From Dehalococcoidia bacterium (lineage in GTDB: Bacteria > Chloroflexota > Dehalococcoidia > SM23-28-2 > RBG-16-64-32): 64,000 nucleotides of DNA. The notes under the pieces were generated by a model. That model did not search any database. It was not told the DNA's origin and saw only the letters and a list, made by a program, of their open reading frames with translations. Below are positions 6,776 through 52,121 of the stretch, in pieces. The DNA lies in contig JBBDNA010000006.1 in NCBI GenBank assembly GCA_040877915.1, positions 128,524 to 192,523 of the forward strand, read 5' to 3'. Made by a program: the position numbers and the translations under genes. Each line of letters starts with the position of its first letter. The stretch's first letter is position 1.

Positions 6776-6831
6776 TCTGTACTATTCTCGTGGATGTGCC
6801 GACATCTTTCGCGACACTGGTTAGCCCAACT

Positions 6832-7010
6832 CGTTCTCCCTGAGCCGCCCGGAGTCCGCCAGGGGCGGACGGAGGGCGAGTCGAAGGGCTTCGCCAGCGC
6901 GTCGTAATCGCACCTTTGTGCGCATAGCGGACAGCCTTCGTGTTCGTACGTATCGACGAAGCACTTCGACAAACCGGCCTGCCTGCCGGCAGGCAGGCTC
7001 AGTGCGAACG
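6832..7010. repeat. Inverted pair of CTGAGC..GTCGAAG / CTTCGAC..GCTCAG repeat arms, each carrying an inserted hairpin
   Basis: Left arm CTGAGC(6840-45)-34 nt hairpin-GTCGAAGGG(6880-88); right arm CTTCGAC(6964-70)-24 nt insert-AGGCTCAG(6995-7002); insert overlaps a perfect 22-bp palindrome GCCTGCCTGCCGGCAGGCAGGC (6977-6998). Confidence 0.8.
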
Positions 7011-7160
7011 GATCGCTGGCTGAAGCGGCTCGGACGACGGGAGTCGTTACCGTTGCATCAGCCGTCGCTACGGTTTATGGATAGCACCATCCAGTCGCCG
7101 AATCCACCTGTGAGCGCGGTCACACCGGCGCCTTACCCGTTGCGCTAAACTGGTGTCGCC

Positions 7161-39462: not shown

Positions 39463-42400
39463 ATGAGCTACTTACCTAAAGCCGCTCATACCCTATACGA
39501 CCCCCGCTTCGAGACCGACGCCTGCGGCGTCGGCTTCCTGGCGCGCCCCGGCGGCGAGCCGAGCCACGACATCGTGGAGATGGCGCTCACCGCCGTCGTC
39601 AACCTGGCCCATCGCGGCGCCGTGGACGCCGACGCCAAGACCGGCGACGGCGCCGGCATCCTCGTCCAGGTCCCCCGCCGCTTCCTCGCCCGCGAGGCGA
39701 AACGGCTGGGGTTTACGCTAGACGACCCCGAAAAGCTCGCCGTCGCCATGGCCTTCCTACCCGCCGGCGACGAGGCCGCCGCCCGCCCCGACGGGCGCCC
39801 ATCTGGGCGTTGCCGTGAGCTCATCGAAGAGAAGGTCCGCGGCCGCGGTCTCAACGTCCTGGGCTGGCGCGAGGTACCGATCGACCGCTCGGTCCTGGGC
39901 GAGAAGGCGCTAGCGACCTGCCCCAGCGTCTGGCAGCTCCTCGTCACCCCGCCCGACGGCCTCGACGGCGACGCCTACGAGCGCGTGCTGTTCCTGGCCC
40001 GCAAGGAGATCGAGGCCGCCGCCCGCGAGGAGGGGATCGAGCACTGCTACATCCCGTCGTTCTCCCATCGCACGCTGGTCTACAAGGGCCTGCTCGTCGC
40101 CAAACAGGTGCGCGAGTTCTACCCCGACCTGCAGGACCCGGAGTTCGAGTCGGCTCTGGCGCTGTTCCACCAGCGCTACAGCACGAACACGTTCCCCAGC
40201 TGGCATCTGGCGCAGCCGCTGCGCTACCTGGCTCACAACGGCGAGATCAACACCGTCTGGGGCAACGAGAACTGGATGCGGGCCCGTGAGCCCGAGCTGC
40301 ACTCGCAGGTCTGGGGCGAAGACATCGGCAAGCTGCGGCCCATCATCACCCCCGGCAACAGCGACTCGGCCAGCCTGGATAACTCCCTGGAGGCCCTCTA
40401 CCTCTCCGGCCGTGACCTCCTGCACGCCATGCTCATGCTGGTACCCCAGGCCTGGGAGCGCATGCCCGACCTGGACCCGGCCTGGCGCGACTTCTACGAG
40501 TACCACGCCTGCCTGATGGAGCCCTGGGACGGACCGGCCGGGCTCAGCTTCACCGACGGCAACCTCGTCGGCGCGGTGTTGGACCGCAACGGCCTGCGGC
40601 CCCTGCGCTACAAGATCGCCAAAGACGGCCTCGTCGTCGCCGCGTCTGAGGTCGGCGTCGTCGACATGCCCGACGCCGACGTCGTCGAGAAGGGGCGGCT
40701 CGGCCCCGGAGAGATGATCGTCGTCGACGTCGCCGGCGCCCGCATGCTCAAGAAGCCGGACATCATGGCGGAGGTGGTCAACCGGCAGCCGTATGGGCAG
40801 TGGGTCGGCGAGAACCTGATCCGTCTGCCACCGACGCCGCCGGGCCAGGACGGCGACAGCCACCGCGCCGGCCTCAACGGCATCGGCCTGCCCCAACTCC
40901 AGATGGCCTTCGCCTGTACGAACGAAGACGTCAAGATGATCATCAAGACTATGGTCACCGAAGGCCACGACCCGGTCTGGTCCATGGGCGACGACGTCCC
41001 CCTGGCCGTCCTCTCCGAGATGCGGCGCCCGCTGATGTTCTACTTCAAGCAGCGGTTCGCGCAGGTCTCCAACCCCGCCATCGACCCCCTGCGCGAAGAG
41101 CTGGTCATGTCGCTCGACTGCTACCTGGGGCCGCGCCACAGCGTCTTCGAGGAGACGCCGCACCACGCCAGGCTCATCCACCTGCCTTACCCGATACTGA
41201 CTGCCCAGCAGATACGGACCCTCCGCGAAAACCCCGACCCTTCCTTCAAGCCGGCGGATATCTCCTGCCTCTTCCCGGCAAGAGATGGCCCCGAGGCCCT
41301 GGCCAAGGCGCTGGACCGGCTGTGCGAGGAGGCCTCGGCCGCCGTGGACGCCGGCGCGGCGATCCTGATCCTGAGTGATGCCGGCGTCAACGCCGAGAGC
41401 GCGCCCATCCCGATGCTCCTGGCCGCCGCCTCCCTCCACCACCACCTCATCCGCGAGGGCAAGCGCATGCGCACGGACATCGTCGTGGAGACGGGCGCGG
41501 CCTGGGACATCCACCACTTCGCGCTGCTCCTGGGCTTCGGCGTCAACGGCATCCACCCCTACCTGGTGAACGCTACCGTCCGCTCCTTCCTCCAGGACCG
41601 CGACATGCAGGAGTCGACCCTCGAGGAGGCGGAGGGCAAGCTGCGCACGGCCATGGAGCGCGGCATCCTTAAGATCATGTCCAAGATGGGCATCTCCGCC
41701 CTCAGCTCCTACCGCGGCGCCCAGATCTTCGAGGCGATAGGCCTGTCCGAGGAGCTGGTGGAGCGCTGCTTCACCGGCACGCCGGCCCGGCTCGGCGGCA
41801 TCGGCCTGCGGGAGATCGGCGAGGACGTCCTGCACTGGCACAGCCTCGCCTTCCCCGACGGCCAGCCGAAGCGCCTTCCCGACATCGGCTACATCCGCTT
41901 CCGGAAAGAGGGCGAGTACCACGGCTTCAACCCTACCGTCGTCACCGCCTTCCAGGCAGCCGTCAGGGAGAACGACGCCCACAAGTACGACCTGTACTCC
42001 AACCTCGTTCACGGCGGCCCACCGCGCACGCTGCGCGACATCATGGAGTTCCAGAGCGACCAGCCATCCATCCCCATCGAAGAGGTGGAGCCGATCGAGA
42101 GCCTGTTCGCCCGCTTCGTGACCGCCGGCATGTCCATGGGCGCGCTCAGCCCCCGCGCGCACGCCACGATCGCCGCCGGGATGAACCGGATCGGCGCCCG
42201 CTCCAACACCGGCGAGGGCGGCGAGGACCCCGACTGGTACGAGCCGTTCCCCAACGGCGACTCGGCGAACAGCCGCATCAAGCAGGTTGCCTCGGGTCGT
42301 TTCGGCGTCACGGCCGCCTACCTCTCGCAGGCCGACGAGCTGGAGATCAAGATCGCGCAGGGCTCCAAGCCCGGCGAGGGCGGCCAGCTCCCCGGCCACA

Positions 42401-44040
42401 AGGTCACCGAGTTCATCGCCCGGATGCGCCACGCCGTGACCGGCATCCCCCTGATCTCCCCGCCTCCCCACCACGACATCTACAGCATCGAGGACATAGC
42501 CCAGCTGATATACGACCTGAAGCAGGCCAACCCGCGCGCCCGCGTCGGCGTGAAGCTCGTCGCGGAGAGCGGTGTGGGGACGATCGCCGCCGGCGTGGTC
42601 AAGGCCTACGCGGACTACATACAGATCAGCGGCATGGACGGCGGCACCGGCGCGTCGCCCCTGTCGTCTATCAAGAACGCCGGCTGTCCCTGGGAGCTGG
42701 GCCTGGCCGAGACGCAGCAGGTCCTCATGCTCAACGGCCTGCGGGGCCGAATCCGCCTGCGCACGGACGGCGGCATCAAGACCGGCCGCGACGTCATCGT
42801 CGCCGCCATGCTGGGCGCCGACGAGTTCGGTTTCGGGACGGCCACGCTGGTCGCCATCGGCTGCGACATGGCCCGCCAGTGCCACCTCAACACCTGCCCC
42901 ACCGGCATCGCCACCCAGCGCCAGGACCTGATCGACGAGAAGTTTAGCGGCGACCCCCAGCACGTCGTCAACTACTTCACCTTCGTCGCCAACGAGGTCC
43001 GGCAGTACCTCGCCTACCTGGGCTACCGCAGCCTCGGCGACCTCATCGGCCGCGTCGACCTGCTCTCGCCGAAGGGGCTGCCGAAGGGGCACCGCGGCCG
43101 CTCCCTGATCCTGGAAGCGATCCTGGCCGACGTCGACCCGGCCGGGCTGATGGACCGGCACTGCACCCAGTTCCGCAACGACCGCCCCCACCCCTGCGCC
43201 GACGACCGGCTACTCCCCGAAGTCGAGCCGGCCATCGAGAGCCGCACGCCCGTCCGCGTCTCCACCGACATCCGCAACAGCGACCTGACCGCCGGCGGGC
43301 GCATCGCCGGGATGATAGCGCACCGCTACCGCAAGGACCCGCTGCCCGAAGGAACCATCGAGATCAACTACCGCGGCAGCGCCGGCCAGAGCTTCGGGGC
43401 CTGGTGCACAACCGGCATGCGCCTGACCCTGGAGGGCGAGGCGAACGACTACGTGGGCAAGGGGATGTGCGGCGGCGAAATCGTCGTTCGCCCTCCGGAA
43501 GGCGCGCCCTTCGCCGCCCACGAGAACGTGATCATCGGCAACACCGTGCTCTACGGCGCCACCGGCGGCCGCATGTTCGTGGCCGGGCGGGCGGGCGAAC
43601 GCTTCGCCGTGCGCAACAGCGGCGCCGTGGCCGTTATCGAGGGCGCCGGCGACCACTGCTGCGAGTACATGACGCAGGGCGTCGTCGTCGTCCTGGGCGC
43701 CACCGGCCGCAACTTCGGCGCCGGCATGTCCCACGGCTTCGCCTACGTCCTGGACGAGGACGGCTCCTTCCCCCGCAAGTACAACCCGGAGCTGGTGACG
43801 ATCGACAAGGTATCGTCGAAGGACGACCTCCGCGAGCTGAAGGGCCTCATCGAAGAGCACGTCGAGAAGACGGGCAGCGCCCGCGGCCGCGAGATACTCG
43901 ATGGCTGGAGCCATTACCTGCCGCTATTCTGGAAGGTGTCGCCCCAGTCCCTGGCCTACAAGATCGACGGCCACGTGGACGAGGATGCCGAGAAGGATGA
44001 CGCGGCGAAGGCGGCGCAGCCCCAGCCGGCGTCTCGATAG
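39463..44040 (+). CDS. gltB: Glutamate synthase large subunit
   Basis: DACGVGF (N-terminal Cys after processing), HQRYSTNT, HNGEINT, EPWDGPA, QGSKPGEGGQLPG, C..ARQCHLNTCPTG, GERFAVRNSG. Confidence 0.98.
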   Translation: MSYLPKAAHTLYDPRFETDACGVGFLARPGGEPSHDIVEMALTAVVNLAHRGAVDADAKTGDGAGILVQVPRRFLAREAKRLGFTLDDPEKLAVAMAFLPAGDEAAARPDGRPSGRCRELIEEKVRGRGLNVLGWREVPIDRSVLGEKALATCPSVWQLLVTPPDGLDGDAYERVLFLARKEIEAAAREEGIEHCYIPSFSHRTLVYKGLLVAKQVREFYPDLQDPEFESALALFHQRYSTNTFPSWHLAQPLRYLAHNGEINTVWGNENWMRAREPELHSQVWGEDIGKLRPIITPGNSDSASLDNSLEALYLSGRDLLHAMLMLVPQAWERMPDLDPAWRDFYEYHACLMEPWDGPAGLSFTDGNLVGAVLDRNGLRPLRYKIAKDGLVVAASEVGVVDMPDADVVEKGRLGPGEMIVVDVAGARMLKKPDIMAEVVNRQPYGQWVGENLIRLPPTPPGQDGDSHRAGLNGIGLPQLQMAFACTNEDVKMIIKTMVTEGHDPVWSMGDDVPLAVLSEMRRPLMFYFKQRFAQVSNPAIDPLREELVMSLDCYLGPRHSVFEETPHHARLIHLPYPILTAQQIRTLRENPDPSFKPADISCLFPARDGPEALAKALDRLCEEASAAVDAGAAILILSDAGVNAESAPIPMLLAAASLHHHLIREGKRMRTDIVVETGAAWDIHHFALLLGFGVNGIHPYLVNATVRSFLQDRDMQESTLEEAEGKLRTAMERGILKIMSKMGISALSSYRGAQIFEAIGLSEELVERCFTGTPARLGGIGLREIGEDVLHWHSLAFPDGQPKRLPDIGYIRFRKEGEYHGFNPTVVTAFQAAVRENDAHKYDLYSNLVHGGPPRTLRDIMEFQSDQPSIPIEEVEPIESLFARFVTAGMSMGALSPRAHATIAAGMNRIGARSNTGEGGEDPDWYEPFPNGDSANSRIKQVASGRFGVTAAYLSQADELEIKIAQGSKPGEGGQLPGHKVTEFIARMRHAVTGIPLISPPPHHDIYSIEDIAQLIYDLKQANPRARVGVKLVAESGVGTIAAGVVKAYADYIQISGMDGGTGASPLSSIKNAGCPWELGLAETQQVLMLNGLRGRIRLRTDGGIKTGRDVIVAAMLGADEFGFGTATLVAIGCDMARQCHLNTCPTGIATQRQDLIDEKFSGDPQHVVNYFTFVANEVRQYLAYLGYRSLGDLIGRVDLLSPKGLPKGHRGRSLILEAILADVDPAGLMDRHCTQFRNDRPHPCADDRLLPEVEPAIESRTPVRVSTDIRNSDLTAGGRIAGMIAHRYRKDPLPEGTIEINYRGSAGQSFGAWCTTGMRLTLEGEANDYVGKGMCGGEIVVRPPEGAPFAAHENVIIGNTVLYGATGGRMFVAGRAGERFAVRNSGAVAVIEGAGDHCCEYMTQGVVVVLGATGRNFGAGMSHGFAYVLDEDGSFPRKYNPELVTIDKVSSKDDLRELKGLIEEHVEKTGSARGREILDGWSHYLPLFWKVSPQSLAYKIDGHVDEDAEKDDAAKAAQPQPASR

Positions 44041-44063
44041 ACCCGGCCCAACCCCCGTGCACT

Positions 44064-44286
44064 GTAGGGTCGACCTTCAGGTCGCCCGCGACCGCAGCCC
44101 GCGTCCAGATAGCCCCGCCCACCAACCTTCGTCCTCCGGGCCGGCCCATGTAGCGGAGGTCCCTTCGACTTCGCTCAGGACATGCTTCAGACCTCCAGCC
44201 TCCAGCCCTGCCCTGAGCCCGCCGTAGGGTCGCCGCCCACAGTCTCGCCAGCGCCCGTTCGCACTGAGCCTGTCGAAGTGCTTCGT
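44064..44286. repeat. REP-like repeat cluster after gltB
   Basis: GTAG/TTCA hairpin 44064-87; GTAG/TTCA hairpin 44150-96 interrupted by a 24-bp CCTTCGACTTCGCTCAGGACATGC insert; (CCTCCAG)2; CTGAGCCTGTCGAAG unit 44256-86. Confidence 0.85.
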
Positions 44287-44481
44287 GAACCTCAACGCGC
44301 ACCAGGCAGGCATTGGAGCCGGGACACCGCCAGCCCGCCTCCACCACGCGTTGACAGGCTCTCACCTGTCATGCTGAGCGCCGACCACGATTGCGCGTAG
44401 TTCGAGTCGCCGCCGCGAAGCATCTGGGGCTGGGCAGCGCTCGCGCGTGGTAGCGCAGCCACAGCCCGCCTCCACCACGCG

Positions 44482-44511
44482 TTGACACCCCCTCCGCCTA
44501 TCTGCTACCCT
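44482..44511 (+). promoter_or_regulatory. Putative promoter of the iscA/erpA-like gene
   Basis: TTGACA-N18-TACCCT with TGn extension. Confidence 0.55.
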
Positions 44512-44563
44512 CAATTCGCGAGTAAAGATACTAATCGCTTCCCAAAACACGCGAGGTGAGCGG

Positions 44564-44926
44564 ATGCTGACGATGACAGACAAGGCCAGCGAGAAGGCCA
44601 AGGAGCTGTTCAAGGAGAAGGGCCTGGACGCCCAGGCCGCCCTCCGCGTCTTCGTCGCCGGCGGCGGCTGCTCCGGCTACCAGTACGGCATGGCCCTGGC
44701 CCGCGAGCCCGACGCCGAGGACCTGCTCATCGAAGCGTCCGGCGTCCGCCTCGTCGTCGACCCCGACAGCGCCCCGCTGCTGGAAGGCGCGGAGATCGAC
44801 TACGTGGACGACCTGATGAAGGCCGGCTTCACCATCTTCAACCCCAACGCCGTGAAGTCCTGCGCCTGCGGCACCAGCTTCCAGACCGCCGAGGGCGGCG
44901 GCCAGGCCAAGGCCTGCTCGCACTAG
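44564..44926 (+). CDS. A-type Fe-S carrier (HesB/IscA/ErpA family)
   Basis: GGGCSG, IDYVDDL, FNPNAVKSCACGTSF. Confidence 0.92.
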   Translation: MLTMTDKASEKAKELFKEKGLDAQAALRVFVAGGGCSGYQYGMALAREPDAEDLLIEASGVRLVVDPDSAPLLEGAEIDYVDDLMKAGFTIFNPNAVKSCACGTSFQTAEGGGQAKACSH

Positions 44927-45044
44927 CCCCTCCGCCCCGCGCCACCCCCAACCAGCGACCTACAACCGGCAAGCCTCGGCCGTTCGCGCTATCATGGTTC
45001 GCGGCTTTTTCGGTTTGTAGGCTTGCCCGCAAGGAGGCCCGTCC

Positions 45045-45497
45045 ATGACCTACTGGATCGTCGTCGGCTCCGAGGACAACATGCGCATCGCCGAGGCCCG
45101 CGGCTTCGACATCTTCGGCTTCAAGTCGACCCGCCGCCGCGAGGCCGCCGGGATGCAGCCCGGCGACAAGCTCATCTTCTACCTCACCAAGATCATGAAG
45201 TTCGGCGGCCTGGCCGAGGTCACCTCCGAGTACTTCGAGGACCACGAGAGGGTCTTCCGCTCCGACAAAAAGCCCAGGGAGGATTACCCGTTCCGCGTCA
45301 ACGTCCGCCCGGAGATCGTCCTCACGCCCGACCAGTACCTGGACGTCAAGGAGATCGGCCCCACGCTGGAGTACACGAAGAAGTGGCCGGCGGAGCACTG
45401 GCGCCTCGCCTTCCAGGGCAACCTGCACCAGATCCCGCAGTCGGACTTCGAGCGAATCGCCGCCCTCATGCGCGAGGCGGCGGGGGTCAGGGCGTAG
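45045..45497 (+). CDS. EVE domain protein (PUA-like)
   Basis: YWIVV.S.DN, MQPGDKLIFY, YPFRV, AFQG.L.QIPQSDF pattern. Confidence 0.8.
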   Translation: MTYWIVVGSEDNMRIAEARGFDIFGFKSTRRREAAGMQPGDKLIFYLTKIMKFGGLAEVTSEYFEDHERVFRSDKKPREDYPFRVNVRPEIVLTPDQYLDVKEIGPTLEYTKKWPAEHWRLAFQGNLHQIPQSDFERIAALMREAAGVRA

Positions 45498-45515
45498 CCC
45501 TACGGCGGCGGTGGA

Positions 45516-46370
45516 ATGGCACTCATCCCGACGTTCTTCCCGGACTGTGTTGTGGCGATAGGCACGTACGCAAATTCCGAGATGCCCGTCTGGTTAGCTT
45601 CGGGGTTCTTCTACGGTTATCGCGTAAGTCCTGAGAACTCAGACGACGCCAAGTACCGCGTTTTTCTAGTCACGAACCGGCACGTATTTGATGGTCTCTC
45701 CGCGGCCTGCGTCCGGGTAAACCCCGAGGCAGACGAGCCGGCAAGAGTCTACAACTTGGACCTACAAGACAAGCAAGGCAAGACCCTGTGGCGCTCCCAT
45801 CCCCGCAGCGAGGTTGACCTCGCCGTAGTACCCGTAAACTTCTCCCTCCTGAAAGAGGAACTCATGCAGGCTGCCTTCTTTACGAGCGACAAGCACAGCG
45901 CGTCCATCGACAAGATGATTGAACTGGGAATTTGTGAAGGTGACTTCGCTTATGTGCTCGGCTTCCCTATGGCCCTTGTGGGCGACAAGCGGAACGCTGT
46001 CATCGTACGTGGTGGCTCGATCGCCCGAATCAGAGACACATTGGCAAAGGCAAATTCCGAGTTCCTTGTTGACGCCTTCATATTCCCGGGGAACAGCGGA
46101 GGGCCAGTCATTTCCAAGCCCGAAGTCGTGGCTATCAAAGGGACCAAATCGCAAAACTCCGCTTATCTGATAGGAGTCGTCAAGTCCTACGTCCCTTATC
46201 AGGATGTGGCCGTCAGTCGCCAGACAGGTCAGCCTCGTGTCATCTTCGAAGAAAACTCAGGGCTAACCGCAGCCCATCCAATCGATTACATAGACGAGGT
46301 GATCGAGGAACACCTAAAGACGAAGGCTGATTTACCAGAGCCAGAATCCACACCACCTCAGGAACCTTAG
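45516..46370 (+). CDS. Trypsin-like serine protease, atypical (lower GC) composition
   Basis: Catalytic triad TNRH, DLAV, GNSGGP; many A/T-ending codons compared with neighbours; no signal peptide or PDZ. Confidence 0.85.
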   Translation: MALIPTFFPDCVVAIGTYANSEMPVWLASGFFYGYRVSPENSDDAKYRVFLVTNRHVFDGLSAACVRVNPEADEPARVYNLDLQDKQGKTLWRSHPRSEVDLAVVPVNFSLLKEELMQAAFFTSDKHSASIDKMIELGICEGDFAYVLGFPMALVGDKRNAVIVRGGSIARIRDTLAKANSEFLVDAFIFPGNSGGPVISKPEVVAIKGTKSQNSAYLIGVVKSYVPYQDVAVSRQTGQPRVIFEENSGLTAAHPIDYIDEVIEEHLKTKADLPEPESTPPQEP

Positions 46371-46419
46371 CGGGCATCCGTCATTGTCTCCCCTTCGGCC
46401 TTCCGATAAGCTTCACGAC

Positions 46420-47346
46420 ATGAGCGATCCCGCAAACCCGGGCGACGTCGCCGTTGCCGAACCCACGACCCTGCGCGAGAAGCTGGCCGCCGGCCGTTTC
46501 GTCGTCAGCGCCGAGGTCGACCCGCCGCACGGCCTGCGCACCCGCAGAGCCCTGGAGGGCGCCGCCCTGCTCCGCGACGCCGGCATCGACGCCATCAACG
46601 TCGGCGACAGCCCCACCGCCAAGGTCCGCATGTCCCCCCTCGCCATGTCCGTCCTCCTCCAGCGCGAGCTCGGCGTCGAAATCGTCATGCACTACACCAC
46701 CCGCGACCGCAACGCCCTGGCCGTCCACTCGGACATGGTCGGCGCCCACGCCCTCGGCATCCGCAACATCCTCTGCCTGCGCGGCGACCCGCCCTCCGTC
46801 GGCGGCTACACGGACATCGTCGGCGTCTGGGACATCAGCGCGGTCGGCCTCGTGCGATCGCTCAAGCTGCTGAACGAAGGACTGGACTGGTCCGGCAAGC
46901 CGATCAGCGGCGAGGCCGATTTCTTCATCGGCGCCTCCTGCGACCCCAACGCAGACCCCCTGGAACCCCAGCTGCGGCTCATGCGACGCAAGGCCGAGGC
47001 CGGCGCCCACTTCTTCGTCTCCCAGAACGTGTTCGACGAGAATGTCCTCGATAACTTCCTCGACAAGACGAAGCGCATCGGCCTGCCCGTCATCGTCGGC
47101 GTGCTGCCGCTGCACAACTCCCGCCACGCCGAGTTCCTGCACACCGAGGTGCCGGGAATGCGCATCCCCGACGCCGTCCGCGAGCGCATGCGCAAGGCCG
47201 GCGACGACAAGGGCCCGCGCGAGGGCCAGGCCATGGCCCGCGACTTCCTGGCCGTCTGCCGCGAGAAGTGTGCCGGCGCCTACGTCGTGCCTTCGTTCGG
47301 TCGCTACGACCTCGTCGCCGAGCTGGTCGCGGAGATCAAGCGCTAG
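46420..47346 (+). CDS. Methylenetetrahydrofolate reductase-like protein (MetF fold, similar to the C-terminal domain of bifunctional YitJ-type enzymes)
   Basis: AEVDPP, INVGDSP..KVRMS, HYTTRDRN, RGDPP, AGAHFFVSQ; TAAGCT 7 nt before ATG. Confidence 0.82.
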   Translation: MSDPANPGDVAVAEPTTLREKLAAGRFVVSAEVDPPHGLRTRRALEGAALLRDAGIDAINVGDSPTAKVRMSPLAMSVLLQRELGVEIVMHYTTRDRNALAVHSDMVGAHALGIRNILCLRGDPPSVGGYTDIVGVWDISAVGLVRSLKLLNEGLDWSGKPISGEADFFIGASCDPNADPLEPQLRLMRRKAEAGAHFFVSQNVFDENVLDNFLDKTKRIGLPVIVGVLPLHNSRHAEFLHTEVPGMRIPDAVRERMRKAGDDKGPREGQAMARDFLAVCREKCAGAYVVPSFGRYDLVAELVAEIKR

Positions 47347-47410
47347 ACCGGCCCGACGGGCCCGTCCGGGCGCGCTGCCTGCCGGCGGGCCGGCGCGCTA
47401 TACTGGATAC

Positions 47411-47842
47411 GTGACCGGTAGAGCCATCGTCCTGTTCGACGGCGTCTGCAACCTCTGCAACGCCTCGCTGGACTTCATCCTGCGTCACGATAGTCGCGGC
47501 TACTTCCGCTTCGCCTCCCTGCAGTCGGACGCCGGCCGGCGGCTGGCACGAGAGCACGGCCTCGACCCAGAGCGGATCGACACCGTCGTGCTGGTAGAGG
47601 ACGGCAAGGCATACCTCCGGTCGAAGGCGGCGCTGCGGATCGCGCGACGGCTGAGCGGGCCGTATAACGCCGCGTACATGCTTATCGCCGTGCCGCGACC
47701 GGTGCGCGATTTCGTATACGACCGGGTCGCCCGCAGTCGCTACCGCTGGTTCGGCAAGCGCGACACCTGCCGCGCCCCCACACCCGAGGAGCGCGACCGC
47801 CTCCTGGACTACGAGCCCGCCGGCGAGGAGGTGGCGGCGTGA
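47411..47842 (+). CDS. DCC1-like thiol-disulfide oxidoreductase (YuxK/DUF393)
   Basis: VLFDGVCNLC, FASLQS, RDFVYDRVARSRYRWFG; TATACT 6 nt before GTG. Confidence 0.88.
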   Translation: MTGRAIVLFDGVCNLCNASLDFILRHDSRGYFRFASLQSDAGRRLAREHGLDPERIDTVVLVEDGKAYLRSKAALRIARRLSGPYNAAYMLIAVPRPVRDFVYDRVARSRYRWFGKRDTCRAPTPEERDRLLDYEPAGEEVAA

Positions 47843-49692
47843 GCGAATCGAAGTTCCACTTCTCCCCCCGGCCCAATCGCGCCCACGAGATCCAGTGGCG
47901 CGAGTGGGGCGGGGACGCGTTCGCGGAGGCGCAGGCGCAGGACAAGCCGATCCTGCTGGCGCTGTCCGCGGTCTGGTGCCACTGGTGCCACGTCATGGAC
48001 GAGACCTCGTACTCCGACCCCGGCGTGATCTCCTACGTCAACCAGCACTACGTCCCCGTCCGCGTCGACAACGACCAGCGCCCGGACATCAACTCCCGCT
48101 ACAACCTGGGCGGCTGGCCGACGACGGCGTTCCTGACCCCGGACGGCGAGCTGATGACCGGCGGCACCTACATCCCGCCCGAGGCGATGCTGGAGCACCT
48201 GCCCAAGATCGCAGTCGCGTATAGGAGCGACAAGGAGGAGATCCTGCGCAAGGTGGGCGAGATGCGGGAGCGCCGCGGCCAGACGGCCGCCCGTCCGGGC
48301 GCTGGCGCCACCCCCGCCCGCGGCGACCTCTCGCCGGAGATGTTCGACGCCGTCGTCAACGGGGTGGCCCAGAGCTACGACCCCGTGTTCGGCGGCTTCG
48401 GCGAGGCGCCCAAGTTCCCTCACACGGACTCGATCGACCTGCTGCTGTACGCGCACCGCCGCCGCAACGACCCCGACCTGCTGCACATGGCCCGCAAGAC
48501 GCTGGAGCTAATGGCTGCCGGCGACGTCTTCGACCAGGAGTGGGGCGGCTTCTTCCGCTACGCCACCCGCCGCGACTGGTCGGAGCCACACTACGAGAAG
48601 ATGCTGGAGGACAACGCGAACCTGCTGCGCTGCCTCCTGGCGCTGCACCGCGTCACCGGCGGCGAGGCCCACGCCGCCGCCGCCTCGCGCGTTATCGACT
48701 ACCTGGAGGCGAAGCTGCGCGACACCGATAAGGGCTACTTCTACGGCTCCCAGGACGCCGACGAGGAGTTCTACAAGCTCGCCGCCGCTGAGCGCGCGAA
48801 GCTCGAGGAGCCGTACATCGACCAGACGTGCTACACGTCCTGGAGCGCGATGGCCGCCTCCGCCTACCTCCAGGCTGCCTGGACGCTGGACCGGCCGGAG
48901 CTGCGCGACGCCGCCCTGCAGGCGCTCAACTTCGCCTGGGAGAACCTGCGCACGGAGGACGGCGGCCTACCGGTGATGCACCGCTACCACGATGGGCCCG
49001 AGGCGGACGCAGGTGGCTCCCCGCACGTCCCCGGCCTCCTGGGCGACCAGGCCTACACCGCCCGCGCCGAGCTCGACGCCTACGAGGTCACGGGCGACCC
49101 CTCGCACCTGGAACGGGCGCAGGCGCTCGCCCAAACCCTTCTCCAGCGCTTCGCCGCCGGGTCTCCGGAGCGTCCGGCCGGATTCCACGACGTCTGGGAC
49201 AGCGGCGGCGGGCTGGGCCGCCTGGCCGATCGCGAACGCTCGCCGCAGGAGAACGCCGTCTGCGCCGAGGTCTTCCTCCGCCTCCACCACCTGACCCGCG
49301 ACGAGGCGTATCACGCCGTCGCCCAATCCACGCTTGAGGCGTTCGCGCCGGCCTACCAGGCGCTGGGCAACTTCGCCGCCGCCTACGCCAAACAGGTCGA
49401 CCTGCTGCTCAACCCGCCGCCGGAGGTCAACGTCGTCGGCCCGCCCGACGATGCGGCCACCCGCGCCCTCCACCTCGCCGCCCTCCGGCTGGACGCGCCG
49501 TTCCGCGTCATCCAGCTGCTGGACCCGGCCCGGGACGCCGAGCGGCTGGCCGCGCTCTCCCTGCCCCCGGAGCCCTCGCCCGCCGCCTATGCCTGCGCCG
49601 GCACGATGTGCTCCGCCCCCGTCACCGACCCCGCCGCCCTCCAGGCCGCCGTCGACGCCATGCGCTCGGCCGGAGTCAGGACGCTCGAATAG
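47839..49692 (+). CDS. Thioredoxin-domain protein (YyaL/DUF255 family)
   Basis: WCHWCHVMDETSY, RPDI, GGWP, APKFP, HYEKMLEDNA, QDADEE. Confidence 0.9.
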   Translation: MSESKFHFSPRPNRAHEIQWREWGGDAFAEAQAQDKPILLALSAVWCHWCHVMDETSYSDPGVISYVNQHYVPVRVDNDQRPDINSRYNLGGWPTTAFLTPDGELMTGGTYIPPEAMLEHLPKIAVAYRSDKEEILRKVGEMRERRGQTAARPGAGATPARGDLSPEMFDAVVNGVAQSYDPVFGGFGEAPKFPHTDSIDLLLYAHRRRNDPDLLHMARKTLELMAAGDVFDQEWGGFFRYATRRDWSEPHYEKMLEDNANLLRCLLALHRVTGGEAHAAAASRVIDYLEAKLRDTDKGYFYGSQDADEEFYKLAAAERAKLEEPYIDQTCYTSWSAMAASAYLQAAWTLDRPELRDAALQALNFAWENLRTEDGGLPVMHRYHDGPEADAGGSPHVPGLLGDQAYTARAELDAYEVTGDPSHLERAQALAQTLLQRFAAGSPERPAGFHDVWDSGGGLGRLADRERSPQENAVCAEVFLRLHHLTRDEAYHAVAQSTLEAFAPAYQALGNFAAAYAKQVDLLLNPPPEVNVVGPPDDAATRALHLAALRLDAPFRVIQLLDPARDAERLAALSLPPEPSPAAYACAGTMCSAPVTDPAALQAAVDAMRSAGVRTLE

Positions 49693-49694
49693 CC

Positions 49695-50228
49695 ATGCCG
49701 AAGCGCGACCAGACCCCTGAGGACGAACTCCGCGACGTCATGGACGAGATGCCCTACGGCCTGTACATCATCGGCTCGAAAGCCGGCGGCGAGGTCAACG
49801 CCATGATGGCCGACTGGGTGATGCAGGTGTCGTTCGTGCCGCGCCTGGTCGCCGTCTCGTTCGAGAACGACGCCCGCACGCTGGCTAACGTCCACGAGTC
49901 CGGCGTGTTCACGGTGAACCTGCTGCCCCAGGAGGCGATGGAGTTCGCCGCGCGCTTCGCCCAGCCGGCCGAGGGCTCCAAGATTAAGGGCCGCTCACCA
50001 GAAGAGGCGGCGAAGGTCCATCACAAGCTTGAGGGCGTGGCGACGACGGATTCCGCGCGCGGCTGCCCGATCCTGGACGAGGCGATGGCCTGGCTGGAGT
50101 GCGAGGCCGAGCAGTACGTCCCCGCCGGCGACCACACGCTGGTCATCGCCCGCGTGCTCGACGGGCGCGTCACCCGCGACGCCGAGCCCCTGACCTCCAC
50201 CTACACCGGCTGGACGTACAGCGGCTAG
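49695..50228 (+). CDS. Flavin reductase-like FMN-binding protein
   Basis: PYGLYIIG, WVMQVSFVP, FTVNLL, AWLECE, GDHTL. Confidence 0.88.
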   Translation: MPKRDQTPEDELRDVMDEMPYGLYIIGSKAGGEVNAMMADWVMQVSFVPRLVAVSFENDARTLANVHESGVFTVNLLPQEAMEFAARFAQPAEGSKIKGRSPEEAAKVHHKLEGVATTDSARGCPILDEAMAWLECEAEQYVPAGDHTLVIARVLDGRVTRDAEPLTSTYTGWTYSG

Positions 50229-50258
50229 CGGCGGGCTCGGCGTGCGGGCCCAGGCAAT

Positions 50259-50654
50259 GTAGGTCGGGGTCTTCAGACCCCGACGGCATCGCCCTCCGGC
50301 GGGCTAATGTAGCGGAGGCCTTCAGGCCTCCATTTGGTGGGCCCAGCAACGGGCCCGCCCGTCATCGCGGGCGACCTGGTCGCCCCTACACCAGCCTGTT
50401 GGGGCGGAGCGGGGCCAAGCTGCGCGATTCATCGCGCAGTACAGCCGTCCGGGCGGGCGGGTCGGCCGAACCACGGCCAGCCCAACGTAGGTCGGGACCT
50501 TCAGACCCCGACGGCACCGCCGTATTCCACGACCAGCCTGTTGGGGCGGAGCGGGGCCAAGCTGTGCGATTCATCGCGCAGTCCAGCCGTCCGGGCGGGC
50601 GGGTGGGCCGAACCACGGCCAGCCCAACGTAGGTCGGGGTCTTCAGACCCCGAC
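50259..50654 (+). repeat. REP/BIME-like cluster with a 142-bp tandem duplication
   Basis: Hairpins at 50259-84, 50309-31, 50369-89 (minus), 50420-39, 50487-512, 50562-81, 50629-54; units starting 50391 and 50533 are near-identical. Confidence 0.9.
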
Positions 50655-50691
50655 GCGACCCTGAGCCCTCACTCCAACCCGCCGAAAGACT

Positions 50692-51207
50692 CTACGGCCA
50701 CTCCTCCTCCTCGACCGGGAACACCTCGCTGAGGCGCCCCTTGAGCTGACGCACCTGCCACAGGTGCTCCAGGTCGTGCTGGGCCAGCTCCCGCGCCACC
50801 TCGCCCAGCGTCACCGGGCCCCGGAACGGGTGCTCCGCCTCGCGCGCCCAGTCGGCCTCCGTCACCCCCCACAACAGCAGCGTCGTCTCCCGCCGCGCCG
50901 AGCGGAACGACTCCAGGAACGCCTCGATCTCTTCGCCCTGGTAGTCGCGCTCCTCCGGCAGCACGTCCACGTCCCAGGCCGGCAGCTTCGACCGTGGCCG
51001 GCCGGAGACGAACGCCTGCACCTGCGCCAGCGCCAGCTCCTCGGCGTCCCGCAGGTGGGCCGCGATCTCCTTCAACGACCACTCGCCCTCGGCCGGGCGC
51101 CAGCAGAGGCGCTCCTCGTCCAGGCCGTACAGCTCGCTCAGCAGCGAGCCTCCGGCCTCACGCAGCGCCTTCAGCGTCCATCCCTGAGGATCGCCATATT
51201 CCAGCAC
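50692..51207 (-). CDS. DinB family protein
   Basis: WSLKEIAAHL.DAE, HDLEHLWQ metal-binding His pattern; TAAAAT 6 nt before GTG. Confidence 0.85.
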   Translation of the reverse strand: MLEYGDPQGWTLKALREAGGSLLSELYGLDEERLCWRPAEGEWSLKEIAAHLRDAEELALAQVQAFVSGRPRSKLPAWDVDVLPEERDYQGEEIEAFLESFRSARRETTLLLWGVTEADWAREAEHPFRGPVTLGEVARELAQHDLEHLWQVRQLKGRLSEVFPVEEEEWP

Positions 51208-51296
51208 GCGACCATTTTAACGCCTGCCTGCCGGCGGGCGGGCCCCGCGACGCCTTTGACCGACCTCCGCGTTGACCCTATCATTATCGACGCGCC

Positions 51297-52121
51297 ATGA
51301 GTGCCGAGGCCCTCCCCCTGACACTGCTCATCCTGTTCGTCGAGTTCACCGTCGGCGGGCTGTGGCTGCTCTGGCTGGCCGACCTACGGGGCGCTGCCGC
51401 CGCCTCGTTCGTCAAGTTCGGCGCCGGCCTCGTCTTCGTCACCGCCGGGCTGACCTTCTGGATCGCCGCCACGGTCTCCGTCGGCGGCGAGGTCGACGGC
51501 TACCCCCTGGACCCCGGCTTCATGCCGCCGGCGCGCATCGCCCTGGCCTGCCTGTTCGGGCTGTGTCTGCCCTACGCCATCCTGAGCTACCGCGAGATGC
51601 GGACGCCGTCGCTGGTCGCCGGTGGGATCGCCACCGCCGCCGGGCTGGCGTCGGTCGCCCTGCTGGCCCAGGTGTTCGCCCTGCCGACGTGGGGGTACGC
51701 GGGCGCGCTGCTGAGCCTCGTGATCGGCGCGCTGGTCGTTGGGGCCGTCTCCATGGGCATGATCCTCGGCCACTGGTACCTGGTGACCCCCCGCCTGCCG
51801 GAGCAGCCACTGCGCGAGATGACGTTCTTCCTCCTGGTCGCCCTGGCCTTCCAGGCGCTGATCATCGTCCCCGCCCTGGTCCTGCCCCGCGACGCCATCA
51901 CGACATCGGTCGATACACCCATCGCCGAGAACCCGTTCTTCTGGCTGCGGGTGGCAGGTGGCGTCGCCTTCCCCTTCGCGCTGACCTATATGGCGTTCGA
52001 TTCCAGCGGCGTGCGGGCCATGCAGTCCGCCACCGGCCTGCTGTACATCGCGATGGCGCTGGTCCTGGCCGGCGAGGTGCTCGCCAAGGGACTGCTGTTC
52101 GCGTCGGCGGTGCCCACCTGA
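51297..52121 (+). CDS. Polytopic membrane protein with a GHWYL motif
   Basis: About eight hydrophobic helices, MILGHWYLV, ATGLLY. Confidence 0.7.
   Translation: MSAEALPLTLLILFVEFTVGGLWLLWLADLRGAAAASFVKFGAGLVFVTAGLTFWIAATVSVGGEVDGYPLDPGFMPPARIALACLFGLCLPYAILSYREMRTPSLVAGGIATAAGLASVALLAQVFALPTWGYAGALLSLVIGALVVGAVSMGMILGHWYLVTPRLPEQPLREMTFFLLVALAFQALIIVPALVLPRDAITTSVDTPIAENPFFWLRVAGGVAFPFALTYMAFDSSGVRAMQSATGLLYIAMALVLAGEVLAKGLLFASAVPT

Follow-up and report, generated by a model that had tools for sequence, protein, structure and literature searches.

A 24-nt repeat module nested at the arm/loop junction of a GTAG-tagged REP hairpin in a Dehalococcoidia genome

The 64,000-nt stretch of DNA that was analysed (referred to as the window; C6:128524-192523) belongs to a Dehalococcoidia assembly of 2.14 Mb in 21 contigs, with 68% G+C and a completeness of 71.5%. 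Within it, the gltB gene is separated from a downstream gene for Fe-S biosynthesis by a block of small repeats (Table 1). Direct reading of the letters at 44150-44196 gave GTAG-C-GGAGGTC-[24 nt]-TTCA-GACCTCC, which agreed letter for letter with what an earlier reading made without database searches (referred to as the sequence-only reading) had described, and the plain relative at 50309 was likewise confirmed. The arms of the two elements, GGAGGTC/GACCTCC and GGAGGCC/GGCCTCC, differ by a compensatory change on both arms. A scan of positions 43000-52000 against Rfam (E <= 1) returned one chance match only and no known RNA family applies, and an exact-protein look-up of the downstream Fe-S gene returned no record.

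Table 1. Features at and around the composite hairpin (positions within the window).
Feature	Position	Strand	Basis
gltB, glutamate synthase large subunit, upstream neighbour	39463..44040	+	Pfam domains, source names
Plain REP nearby, GTAG-GGTCGACC-TTCA-GGTCGCCC, 1 arm mismatch	44064..44087	+	C6:172598, hairpin scan
GTAG head of the host REP hairpin	44150..44153	+	Direct reading; GTAG precedes 82 stem-TTYA-stem hairpins genome-wide
Single C between GTAG head and 5' arm	44154	+	Direct reading
REP 5' arm GGAGGTC	44155..44161	+	Perfect complement of 44190-44196
Nested insert, 24-nt module CCTTCGACTTCGCTCAGGACATGC, T22 subtype	44162..44185	+	1 mismatch to the genome consensus
REP loop TTCA, pushed 3' of the insert	44186..44189	+	Direct reading
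REP 3' arm GACCTCC	44190..44196	+	Pairs with the 5' arm
Second-family hairpin CGAAGCAC-TTCGACAGGCTCA-GTGCGAACGG, conserved 13-nt loop	44255..44285	-	C6:172800
120-aa Fe-S biosynthesis gene (HesB/IscA-type), downstream neighbour	44564..44926	+	Synteny with L136 and L137; PF01521 there
Uninterrupted relative GTAGCGGAGGCCTTCAGGCCTCC = GTAG-C-GGAGGCC-TTCA-GGCCTCC	50309..50331	+	Direct reading and hairpin scan

The two nearest relatives, with GltB proteins 85% and 83% identical, have spacers of 86 and 85 nt between gltB and the Fe-S gene, where the present genome has 523 nt. Because these short spacers hold no repeats, the whole repeat block is specific to the present lineage, and for the same reason the polarity of module insertion is not obtainable from the gltB locus. 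The promoter-like sequence of the Fe-S gene (TTGACA-N17-TACCCT) still adjoins this gene, and a partial duplicate of the sequence lies upstream.

The insert sits in an ordinary REP hairpin with a GTAG tag, a type of element that depends on a REP-associated tyrosine transposase (RAYT). A genome scan for GTAG-stem-TTYA-stem hairpins yielded 82 plain and 11 interrupted copies (~93 in total), and hairpins with an exact stem and a TTCA or TTTA loop numbered 63. The plain copies fall into ~10 arm families (including GGGCGACC, GTCGGGGTC, GGAGGCC, GGACAGAGC, GCTGCAGGCC and GCGGGTAGC), throughout which the GTAG head and the loop are constant. REPs lie mostly just 3' of genes, and all 11 interrupted ones are located between genes with a coding GC3 pattern. 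The single Y1_Tnp gene of the genome (C12:112160-112636) is itself placed between inverted REPs, with GTAGGGACAGAGC-TTTA-GCTCTGTCC at one end and the inverted GGACAGACC-TGAA-GGTCTGTCCCTAC at the other, and is a RAYT by its score of 132 bits on the NCBIfam model NF047646 (REP-associated tyrosine transposase; cut-off 80). A RAYT was one of three small nuclease types that the sequence-only reading had suggested looking for.

GTAG REPs and their RAYT (TnpA_REP) have been described in detail (Nunvar 2010, PMC2817692; Bertels & Rainey 2011, PMC3116915; Di Nocera 2013, PMC3733652), and the system found here shares with them the GTAG head, the GC-rich arms of 7-9 bp, the short loop and the classical layout of a RAYT gene between two inverted REPs. 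It differs in that ~12% of the copies have a 24-nt block of foreign origin lodged between arm and loop, and in that this block is part of another repeat system. A Chloroflexi REP family and REPs inside genes were already listed by Di Nocera et al. (PMC3733652), who discarded repeats with unusual loops, which may be why REP composites are absent from catalogues. As to the fold, the plain relative at 50309-50331 reached -7.3 kcal/mol (z = -3.9), and the composite at 44150-44196 reached -4.5 kcal/mol (z = 0.08) with a loop of 28 nt, so that it is counted as an interrupted member of the REP family by its intact arms and not as a stable stem-loop with a short loop. Since the insert weakens the REP fold, it is doubtful that such composites remain good RAYT substrates.

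The insert had been assigned to a family of CTTCGAC..GCTCAG units, and this proved correct: the 24-mer consensus CCTTCGACTTCGCTCAGGACAGGC, with up to 5 mismatches allowed, occurs in 41 copies in the 2.14-Mb genome and in none in a first-order Markov shuffle. The unit (referred to as the module) has the form CCTTCGRC-N2-3-GCTCAGGRCAKGC, in which two near-invariant blocks enclose a hypervariable spacer of 2-3 nt. Specifically, positions 9-11 have an entropy of 1.2-1.7 bits, and the flanking blocks are almost invariant except for the dimorphic positions 7, 19 and 22; a 23-nt form with a 2-nt spacer is also present. No fold is predicted for the module, which has a minimum free energy of 0 kcal/mol, with all 200 shuffles folding as well or better. 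Its orientation showed no bias with respect to local GC skew. The exact pattern was found in 73 of 401 Chloroflexota genomes (reversed-pattern control: 0 matches), and the module also occurs in other phyla and in 105 stretches of viral contigs. A 17-mer scan of genome contigs gave mostly chance matches, with 37 of ~120 stretches standing in a module context.

Although it lacks a stem, the module is related to a second hairpin family, which comprises ~108 copies in the genome and has variable stems around the conserved 13-nt loop TTCGACAGGCTCA. The module was found inserted in ~10 of these loops, at TTCGAC^AGGCTCA, and in ~8 hairpins of the type GAGATYC^TTCGCTYCGCTCAGGATGACA (GAGATYC^TTCGCT..). 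Together with its presence in 11 of the ~93 GTAG REPs, this upholds the earlier claim of a nested hierarchy of repeats, in which nesting is recurrent and position-specific. Modules also lie beside partial copies of themselves, and a tandem array at C9:35656 consists of three 24-nt units. Other copies are placed, in either orientation, within reading frames whose GC3 pattern is a coding one.

Inside REPs, the landing position of the module was strictly defined. Among the 11 GTAG/TTYA REPs that hold the module or a close variant, the insert lies between the 5' arm and TTYA in 10 (8 from the consensus scan plus diverged variants of 26 nt and 23 nt). In the remaining REP (C1:139847), the insert is reversed and separates the loop from the 3' arm, a position that, read on the opposite strand, is the same junction. 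Were all positions of a ~22-nt hairpin equally likely, the 11 would share this junction with a probability of ~4e-11. Moreover, the genome contains 4,658 C^TTYA sites, ~92 of which are REP loops, and occupied sites numbered 10 of the ~92 in REPs and 0 of the ~4,560 others. Four arm families (GGGCGACC, GGAGGCC/GGAGGTC, GGAAGC and GTCGGGGTC) contain the interrupted REPs, and each of them has many plain copies too. Beyond the present genus, REP composites were found in three more genera of its taxonomic family, and JGI metagenomes yielded 32 further ones from at least 10 arm families, always with the same junction. A filled/empty pair for the REP loci was sought among the nearest relatives and metagenomes and none was found; in the JGI metagenomes, a pattern specific to this site, made to match the REP with or without its insert, gave 0 matches.

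Filled and empty sites could be compared in protein-coding genes. In aspS, purL and hemW, the module amounts to exactly 8 extra codons (24 nt), in frame. The AspS protein reads PGGAD-PSTSLRTG-LSRKQIDE across the insert, where all 29 relatives, drawn from the same family and order, have a gap of 7-8 codons and AspRS chains from the PDB one of 8 residues. For purL, the 8 codons were missing from all 22 relatives with the stretch aligned, and for hemW from 18 of 19, the nearest relatives being 86-88% identical. The 19th hemW gene (in genome G015) is interrupted at this very codon junction by a different element (TTCGAC-..-GCTCA), which is related but longer and points the opposite way, so that the junction has been struck twice. 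Among the gene copies, which include those in folK and UDG, the comparison with relatives covered aspS, purL and hemW; ThyX aligned with the M. tuberculosis structure without a gap at the module. In the gene insertions, the length difference was always exactly 24 nt and the junction ambiguity 1-3 nt, with no longer target duplication. Module addition is demonstrably precise (24 nt, with an ambiguity of at most 1-3 nt), both in hairpin loops and in genes. A model in which CTTC is duplicated as target site was rejected, given the exact length difference of 24 nt and a junction ambiguity of just 1-3 nt.

Rickettsia palindromic elements (RPEs) are palindromes of ~100-150 bp, unlike the module, which is 24 nt long and unstructured. 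They have in common with it the in-frame read-through in housekeeping genes (Ogata et al. 2000, cited in PMC3733652).

The REP-embedded modules form one lineage. The T22 subtype (ending in ..CATGC) was carried by all 8 forward REP-embedded copies from the consensus scan and by none of the 33 others (p = 1e-8), the composites at C4:20294 and C8:37999 are identical, and genome G015 contains 4 composites with near-identical arms. These observations indicate that REP composites spread also as whole units, presumably as REPs do, and because T22 is shared, nested copies need not each be a fresh insertion. The module at 44162-44185 is one base off that of the composite at C6:275658, and the three GGAGG(C/T)C composites of the genome have modules 1-3 bases apart. 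With the REP-embedded modules being of one T22 lineage, the copy at 44162-44185 most likely arrived already composite, copied along with its GGAGG(C/T)C relatives, and was not freshly inserted at 44161/44162. T22 modules followed by TT were also found outside REPs in other phyla, so T22 is not purely a REP marker.

The same observations might be taken further, to the view that only a composite REP subfamily exists here. The module plus TTYA would then be an old long-loop variant of the GTAG REP, moved by the RAYT solely as a portion of REPs and changing its arms by compensation or exchange, and no module would have entered a loop in this lineage. The exclusive presence of T22 in the forward REP copies, the identical composite pair, the near-identical arms in G015 and the close similarity of the three GGAGG(C/T)C modules are all in keeping with this, as is the occurrence of the same composite in Dehalococcoidia, Chloroflexia and many metagenome lineages. 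However, four arm families hold plain as well as composite copies, so that exactly 24 nt must have been precisely gained or lost four times or more, and the REP at C1:139847 has a reversed module of the G22 type at its mirror junction. Moreover, the module demonstrably inserts elsewhere, in aspS, purL and hemW, and T22 modules occur outside REPs in other phyla. We therefore consider this view possible but doubtful.

The sequence-only reading had further proposed that one hairpin-targeting mechanism acts on several repeat families and that insertions cluster at hairpin loops. The strict arm/loop junction in REPs, occupied at 10 of the ~92 REP sites, bears this out in part, but the sites in aspS, purL and hemW are not hairpins, and the reconstructed empty sites outside repeats fell in predicted hairpin loops in 7 of 15 cases, no more often than random sites, for which the fraction was 0.37 (p = 0.31). 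Given the exact gene insertions and this lack of loop enrichment, a hairpin is not required for insertion. The T22 mark suggests that composites were also copied as units, and that a single mechanism serves several repeat families we can only infer.

The insertion sites instead share a likeness to parts of the module, in the forms C^TTCR, CGAC^CTCAG and GGCCT^GCCC. REP loops and GAGATYC hairpins offer C^TTCR, and the module begins with CCTTCG. In the nearest relatives, the empty aspS site reads GCCGCC^TTCAGCC; the protein of G037 has D-L at that point, which points to a GAC^CTCAG target, and the module core is CGAC-NNNG-CTCAG. The hemW target reads GGCCT^GCCCGAGC, and the reversed module begins with GCCTGYCCTGAGC.

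Of the two other nuclease types named beforehand, DUF559 gave one weak match within a reading frame of 1,411 aa, with no link to the repeats. The search for a GIY-YIG nuclease, on the other hand, led to a small single-domain gene of 98 aa at C19:9955-10248 (PF01541, 66.8 bits). On each side of this gene lie two hairpins of the TTCGAC..GCTCA type (C19:9930/9970 and 10260/10297), and the two sides are mutually inverted. The 98-aa protein had no match in an NCBIfam search; it aligned over residues 2-79 with the UPF0213 chain 1zg2, and the nearest solved chains are UPF0213 proteins, with no named Ssn among them.

Homologues of this protein were present at E <= 1e-8 in 100 of 401 Chloroflexota genomes, and their distribution followed that of the module: 52 of 73 module-positive and 48 of 328 module-negative genomes carry one (odds ratio 14, p = 5e-21; hand counts from tables without phylogenetic correction, inflated by shared ancestry). 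For close homologues (E <= 1e-20), the counts, made in the same way and similarly inflated by shared ancestry, were 20/23 vs 53/378 (odds ratio 41). Among the module-positive genomes, 21 of 73 lacked a homologue at E <= 1e-8. Of the 13 closest Chloroflexota homologues, 9-10 have a hairpin in antisense on the upstream side of the gene and one in sense on the downstream side, and these flanked genes come from six families and have differing flanking DNA. In other phyla, 12 of 14 module-bearing genomes have a homologue. Close homologues in a deltaproteobacterial and an alphaproteobacterial MAG are flanked in the same inverted way, the flanking hairpins of the latter having the module-type 3-nt spacer (CCCTTCGACTTCGCTCAGGAC), and related elements adjoin homologues in Anaerolineae and Bacteroidia MAGs. 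The TTCGAC..GCTCA family is in these ways tied to the 98-aa GIY-YIG gene, whose product is a candidate enzyme for its spread.

A comparable pairing is known from the Ssn enzymes (Chenal et al. 2025, PMC11893778), which are single-domain GIY-YIG nucleases for single-stranded DNA with SRM/NTS hairpin repeats. They bind the NTS/SRM hairpin repeat in its single-stranded form, with cleavage a few bases upstream (PMC11893778). The two systems share a GIY-YIG protein of ~94-100 aa without any other domain, the placement of the gene between inverted dispersed hairpins (NTS-ssnA-NTS), the tendency of repeat-rich genomes to carry the gene, and a spread across phyla (PMC11893778). Conservation in the NTS falls on the stem, with a free loop, whereas the present hairpins have a conserved loop and variable stems. 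Moreover, the published degenerate SRM string (PMC11893778) is not matched by the module or the hairpin families; it gave 19 matches in the genome against 26-27 in shuffles, and none within the repeat families. The sections of PMC11893778 that were consulted describe neither exact 24-nt gene insertions nor insertion into REP loops.

The likeness between targets and module segments might also point to an enzyme-free origin, with copies arising by template switching or slippage between repeats during replication via microhomology. The 1-3 nt that junctions share with the module ends and the existence of tandem arrays such as the one at C9:35656 would agree with this. However, what the genes gained at unrelated sites was in each case exactly one complete unit of 24 nt, and from phylum to phylum the two blocks hardly change but the spacer does, which points to recognition by a protein. 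Given moreover the strong association with one nuclease clade, we regard an enzyme-free origin as improbable.

More improbable again is that the RAYT, a Y1 HUH transposase, moves the module as a single strand and places it 3' of a short target without duplication, in the manner of IS200/IS605 elements. The precise insertion without target duplication, the preference for a RAYT-bound hairpin, the presence of a RAYT in the genome and a weak phylum-wide association (Y1_Tnp in 40/73 module-positive vs 113/328 module-negative genomes; odds ratio 2.3, p = 0.002) would fit. However, Y1_Tnp is absent from 33 of the 73 module-positive genomes, including the near-complete G200, G222, G210 and G354 with 15-38 module copies; furthermore, the module has neither a GTAG nor a hairpin, and it shows no orientation bias with respect to GC skew.

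REPs, very small dispersed repeats and pairs of Ssn-type nuclease and repeat are known kinds of element. Literature searches with the module sequence and its pseudo-peptides returned nothing relevant, and no description of the module family, its exact gene insertions or its habit of entering REP loops was found. The closest analogue of module behaviour is provided by the small dispersed repeats SDR1-8 of Nostoc punctiforme, which Elhai and colleagues are said to have described in 2008 as units of 21-27 nt. These repeats are reportedly nested in their own copies, in other repeats and within heptamer tandem arrays, and are said to have been inferred to be mobile, with SDR4-6 reportedly sharing a fold with compensatory changes. 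The module (23/24 nt here) resembles them in size, dispersal and nesting in its own copies and in other repeats, and, in other Chloroflexota, in its embedding in heptamer tandems. It differs from SDR4-6, which have a common fold, in having no predicted one; from the Nostoc repeats as a whole, which belong to one cyanobacterial group, in spanning many phyla and viral contigs; and in now having a candidate nuclease. RNA-mediated copying via reverse transcription, reportedly suggested for the Nostoc repeats, which the module parallels in size, self-nesting and heptamer-tandem embedding, is nevertheless the least probable route here, as no RVT_1 was found in the present genome or in seven further module-rich ones (12 tested, the present one included), four of these RVT_1-free genomes being single-contig assemblies with 20-28 copies, and as gene copies lie in both orientations (5 sense, 4 antisense).

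The reading that we prefer, with a probability of roughly 55%, is that 44150-44196 is a repeat within a repeat: a module of a GIY-YIG-associated family, spread by nicking and copying, lies in a REP of the RAYT type, and the copy seen here arrived as a ready composite. The module family would belong to an Ssn-type single-domain GIY-YIG nuclease whose gene lies between inverted hairpin copies. This nuclease may nick motif-like sequence once it is single-stranded, and an extruded REP hairpin would offer C^TTCA at its arm/loop junction. Repair of the nick would then copy the module from another copy via short homology at the junction, and the resulting composites would travel with their REPs. To our knowledge, GIY-YIG nucleases only cut, and we know of no joining activity among them; the copy step would therefore have to rest on host repair, as we infer, and it is the weakest link of the mechanism.

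A broader and much more tentative proposal is that an Ssn-like single-domain GIY-YIG nuclease for single-stranded DNA runs a mobile system that extends across phyla, with the module as its minimal cargo. This nuclease would nick motif-like sequence wherever it turns single-stranded, and the nick would be mended by copying a module from another copy, as a form of homing for which a few bases of homology suffice; the extruded REP hairpins of the rival RAYT system would serve as preferred landing pads. If this were true, one selfish repeat system would be parasitic on another, and the SLSKG, FDKLRANG and PVLSEVEG pseudo-peptides in spurious reading frames across phyla would be explained.

Dispersed repeats of 20-30 nt occur in many bacterial genomes, also in essential genes, and we know of no enzyme tied to any of them. 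For the module family, there are now filled and empty sites in three housekeeping genes, a strict position in REPs and a candidate nuclease with an Ssn-like layout, so that the way in which 24 bases move can be put to the test with a single small protein and a handful of oligonucleotides. A RAYT/REP system and a GIY-YIG/hairpin repeat system interact here within one genome. For genome annotation, 8-codon insertions and spurious reading frames are to be expected from the module family. Indeed, five of the six module reading frames are open, yielding the pseudo-peptides PSTSLRTG, FDFAQDR, LRLRSGQ, PVLSEVE and ACPERSRR.

Comparison of hemW between genomes revealed that the codon junction at which the 24-nt module lies in the source genome (G000) is an insertion hot spot. 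In the homologue from a different genus (L195, a stretch of contig C32 of genome G015), the identical codon junction is occupied by a related element of greater length, CCCTTCGACTCGCCC..GGCGGCTCAGGGTGAGCGG, which adds 14 net codons and lies in the opposite orientation.

The module was also observed in tandem settings. Within the source genome, a 414-aa reading frame has three 24-nt modules in perfect tandem at its start. In four stretches from other Chloroflexota (L212, L215, L219 and L225), the module is enclosed by short tandem heptamer arrays (CTGATAA, TGGTAAT, GTGGAAA and GACTGAT). The small dispersed repeats of Nostoc reportedly lie within tandem heptamer arrays as well, and share this setting with the module in those four stretches. 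The exact module pattern was furthermore present in 105 stretches of IMG/VR predicted viral contigs (L246-L350), with at most three copies per contig. These stretches may belong to phages or to host DNA flanking prophages, and such contigs are a possible route for the module between phyla.

The two nearest relatives have only 86 and 85 nt between gltB and the Fe-S gene. In the window this spacer measures 523 nt and is taken up by two REPs (GTAG-tagged hairpins), a REP half and a TTCGACAGGCTCA hairpin. Moreover, the direct repeat CAGCCCGCCTCCACCACGCGTTGACA within the window's spacer is a duplication of the downstream promoter's –35 region.

A composite element of ca. 150-200 nt was noticed in the window and at no fewer than nine further loci. 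Its first hairpin reads CGAAGCCC-TTCGAC-[34-nt inner hairpin]-GCTCA-GGGCGAACGG, while its second part, CGAAGCAC-TTCGACARGCTCA-GTGCGAACGG, is inverted and located ca. 80 nt from the first hairpin. The inner stems co-vary among copies, and the element may represent a MITE-like unit or else a structured RNA.

Positions of repeat features and GIY-YIG loci (feature, position, setting)
Composite element	window 6800-7040	
Composite element, example locus	C2:61207/61290	
Composite element, example locus	C3:37411/37494	
Composite element, example locus	C4:79113/79197	
gltB to Fe-S gene spacer	window 44041-44563	
REP half	window 44225-44235	within gltB to Fe-S gene spacer
Direct repeat CAGCCCGCCTCCACCACGCGTTGACA	window ~44333 and ~44463	within gltB to Fe-S gene spacer
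Tandem of three modules	G000 C9:35656-35727	outside window
GIY-YIG gene, 98 aa, with flanking hairpins	G000 C19:9900-10320	outside window
Second small GIY-YIG gene, with tRNA-like copies	G000 C6:250450-251050	outside window

On contig C19 of the source genome, a single-domain GIY-YIG gene (98 aa) is flanked on each side by a pair of TTCGAC..GCTCA hairpins, the two pairs being mutually inverted, and the reading frame runs into the last flanking hairpin, which supplies the protein's C-terminal residues and its stop codon. Another small GIY-YIG gene lies on contig C6, at a locus with a run of N just beyond it. Two near-identical tRNA-like copies (..GGAGGGATCGCATAGAGGCCTAGTGCGCCCGCCTGCTAAGCGGG..) flank this gene, and the locus looks like a nuclease cassette inserted within or next to a tRNA gene.
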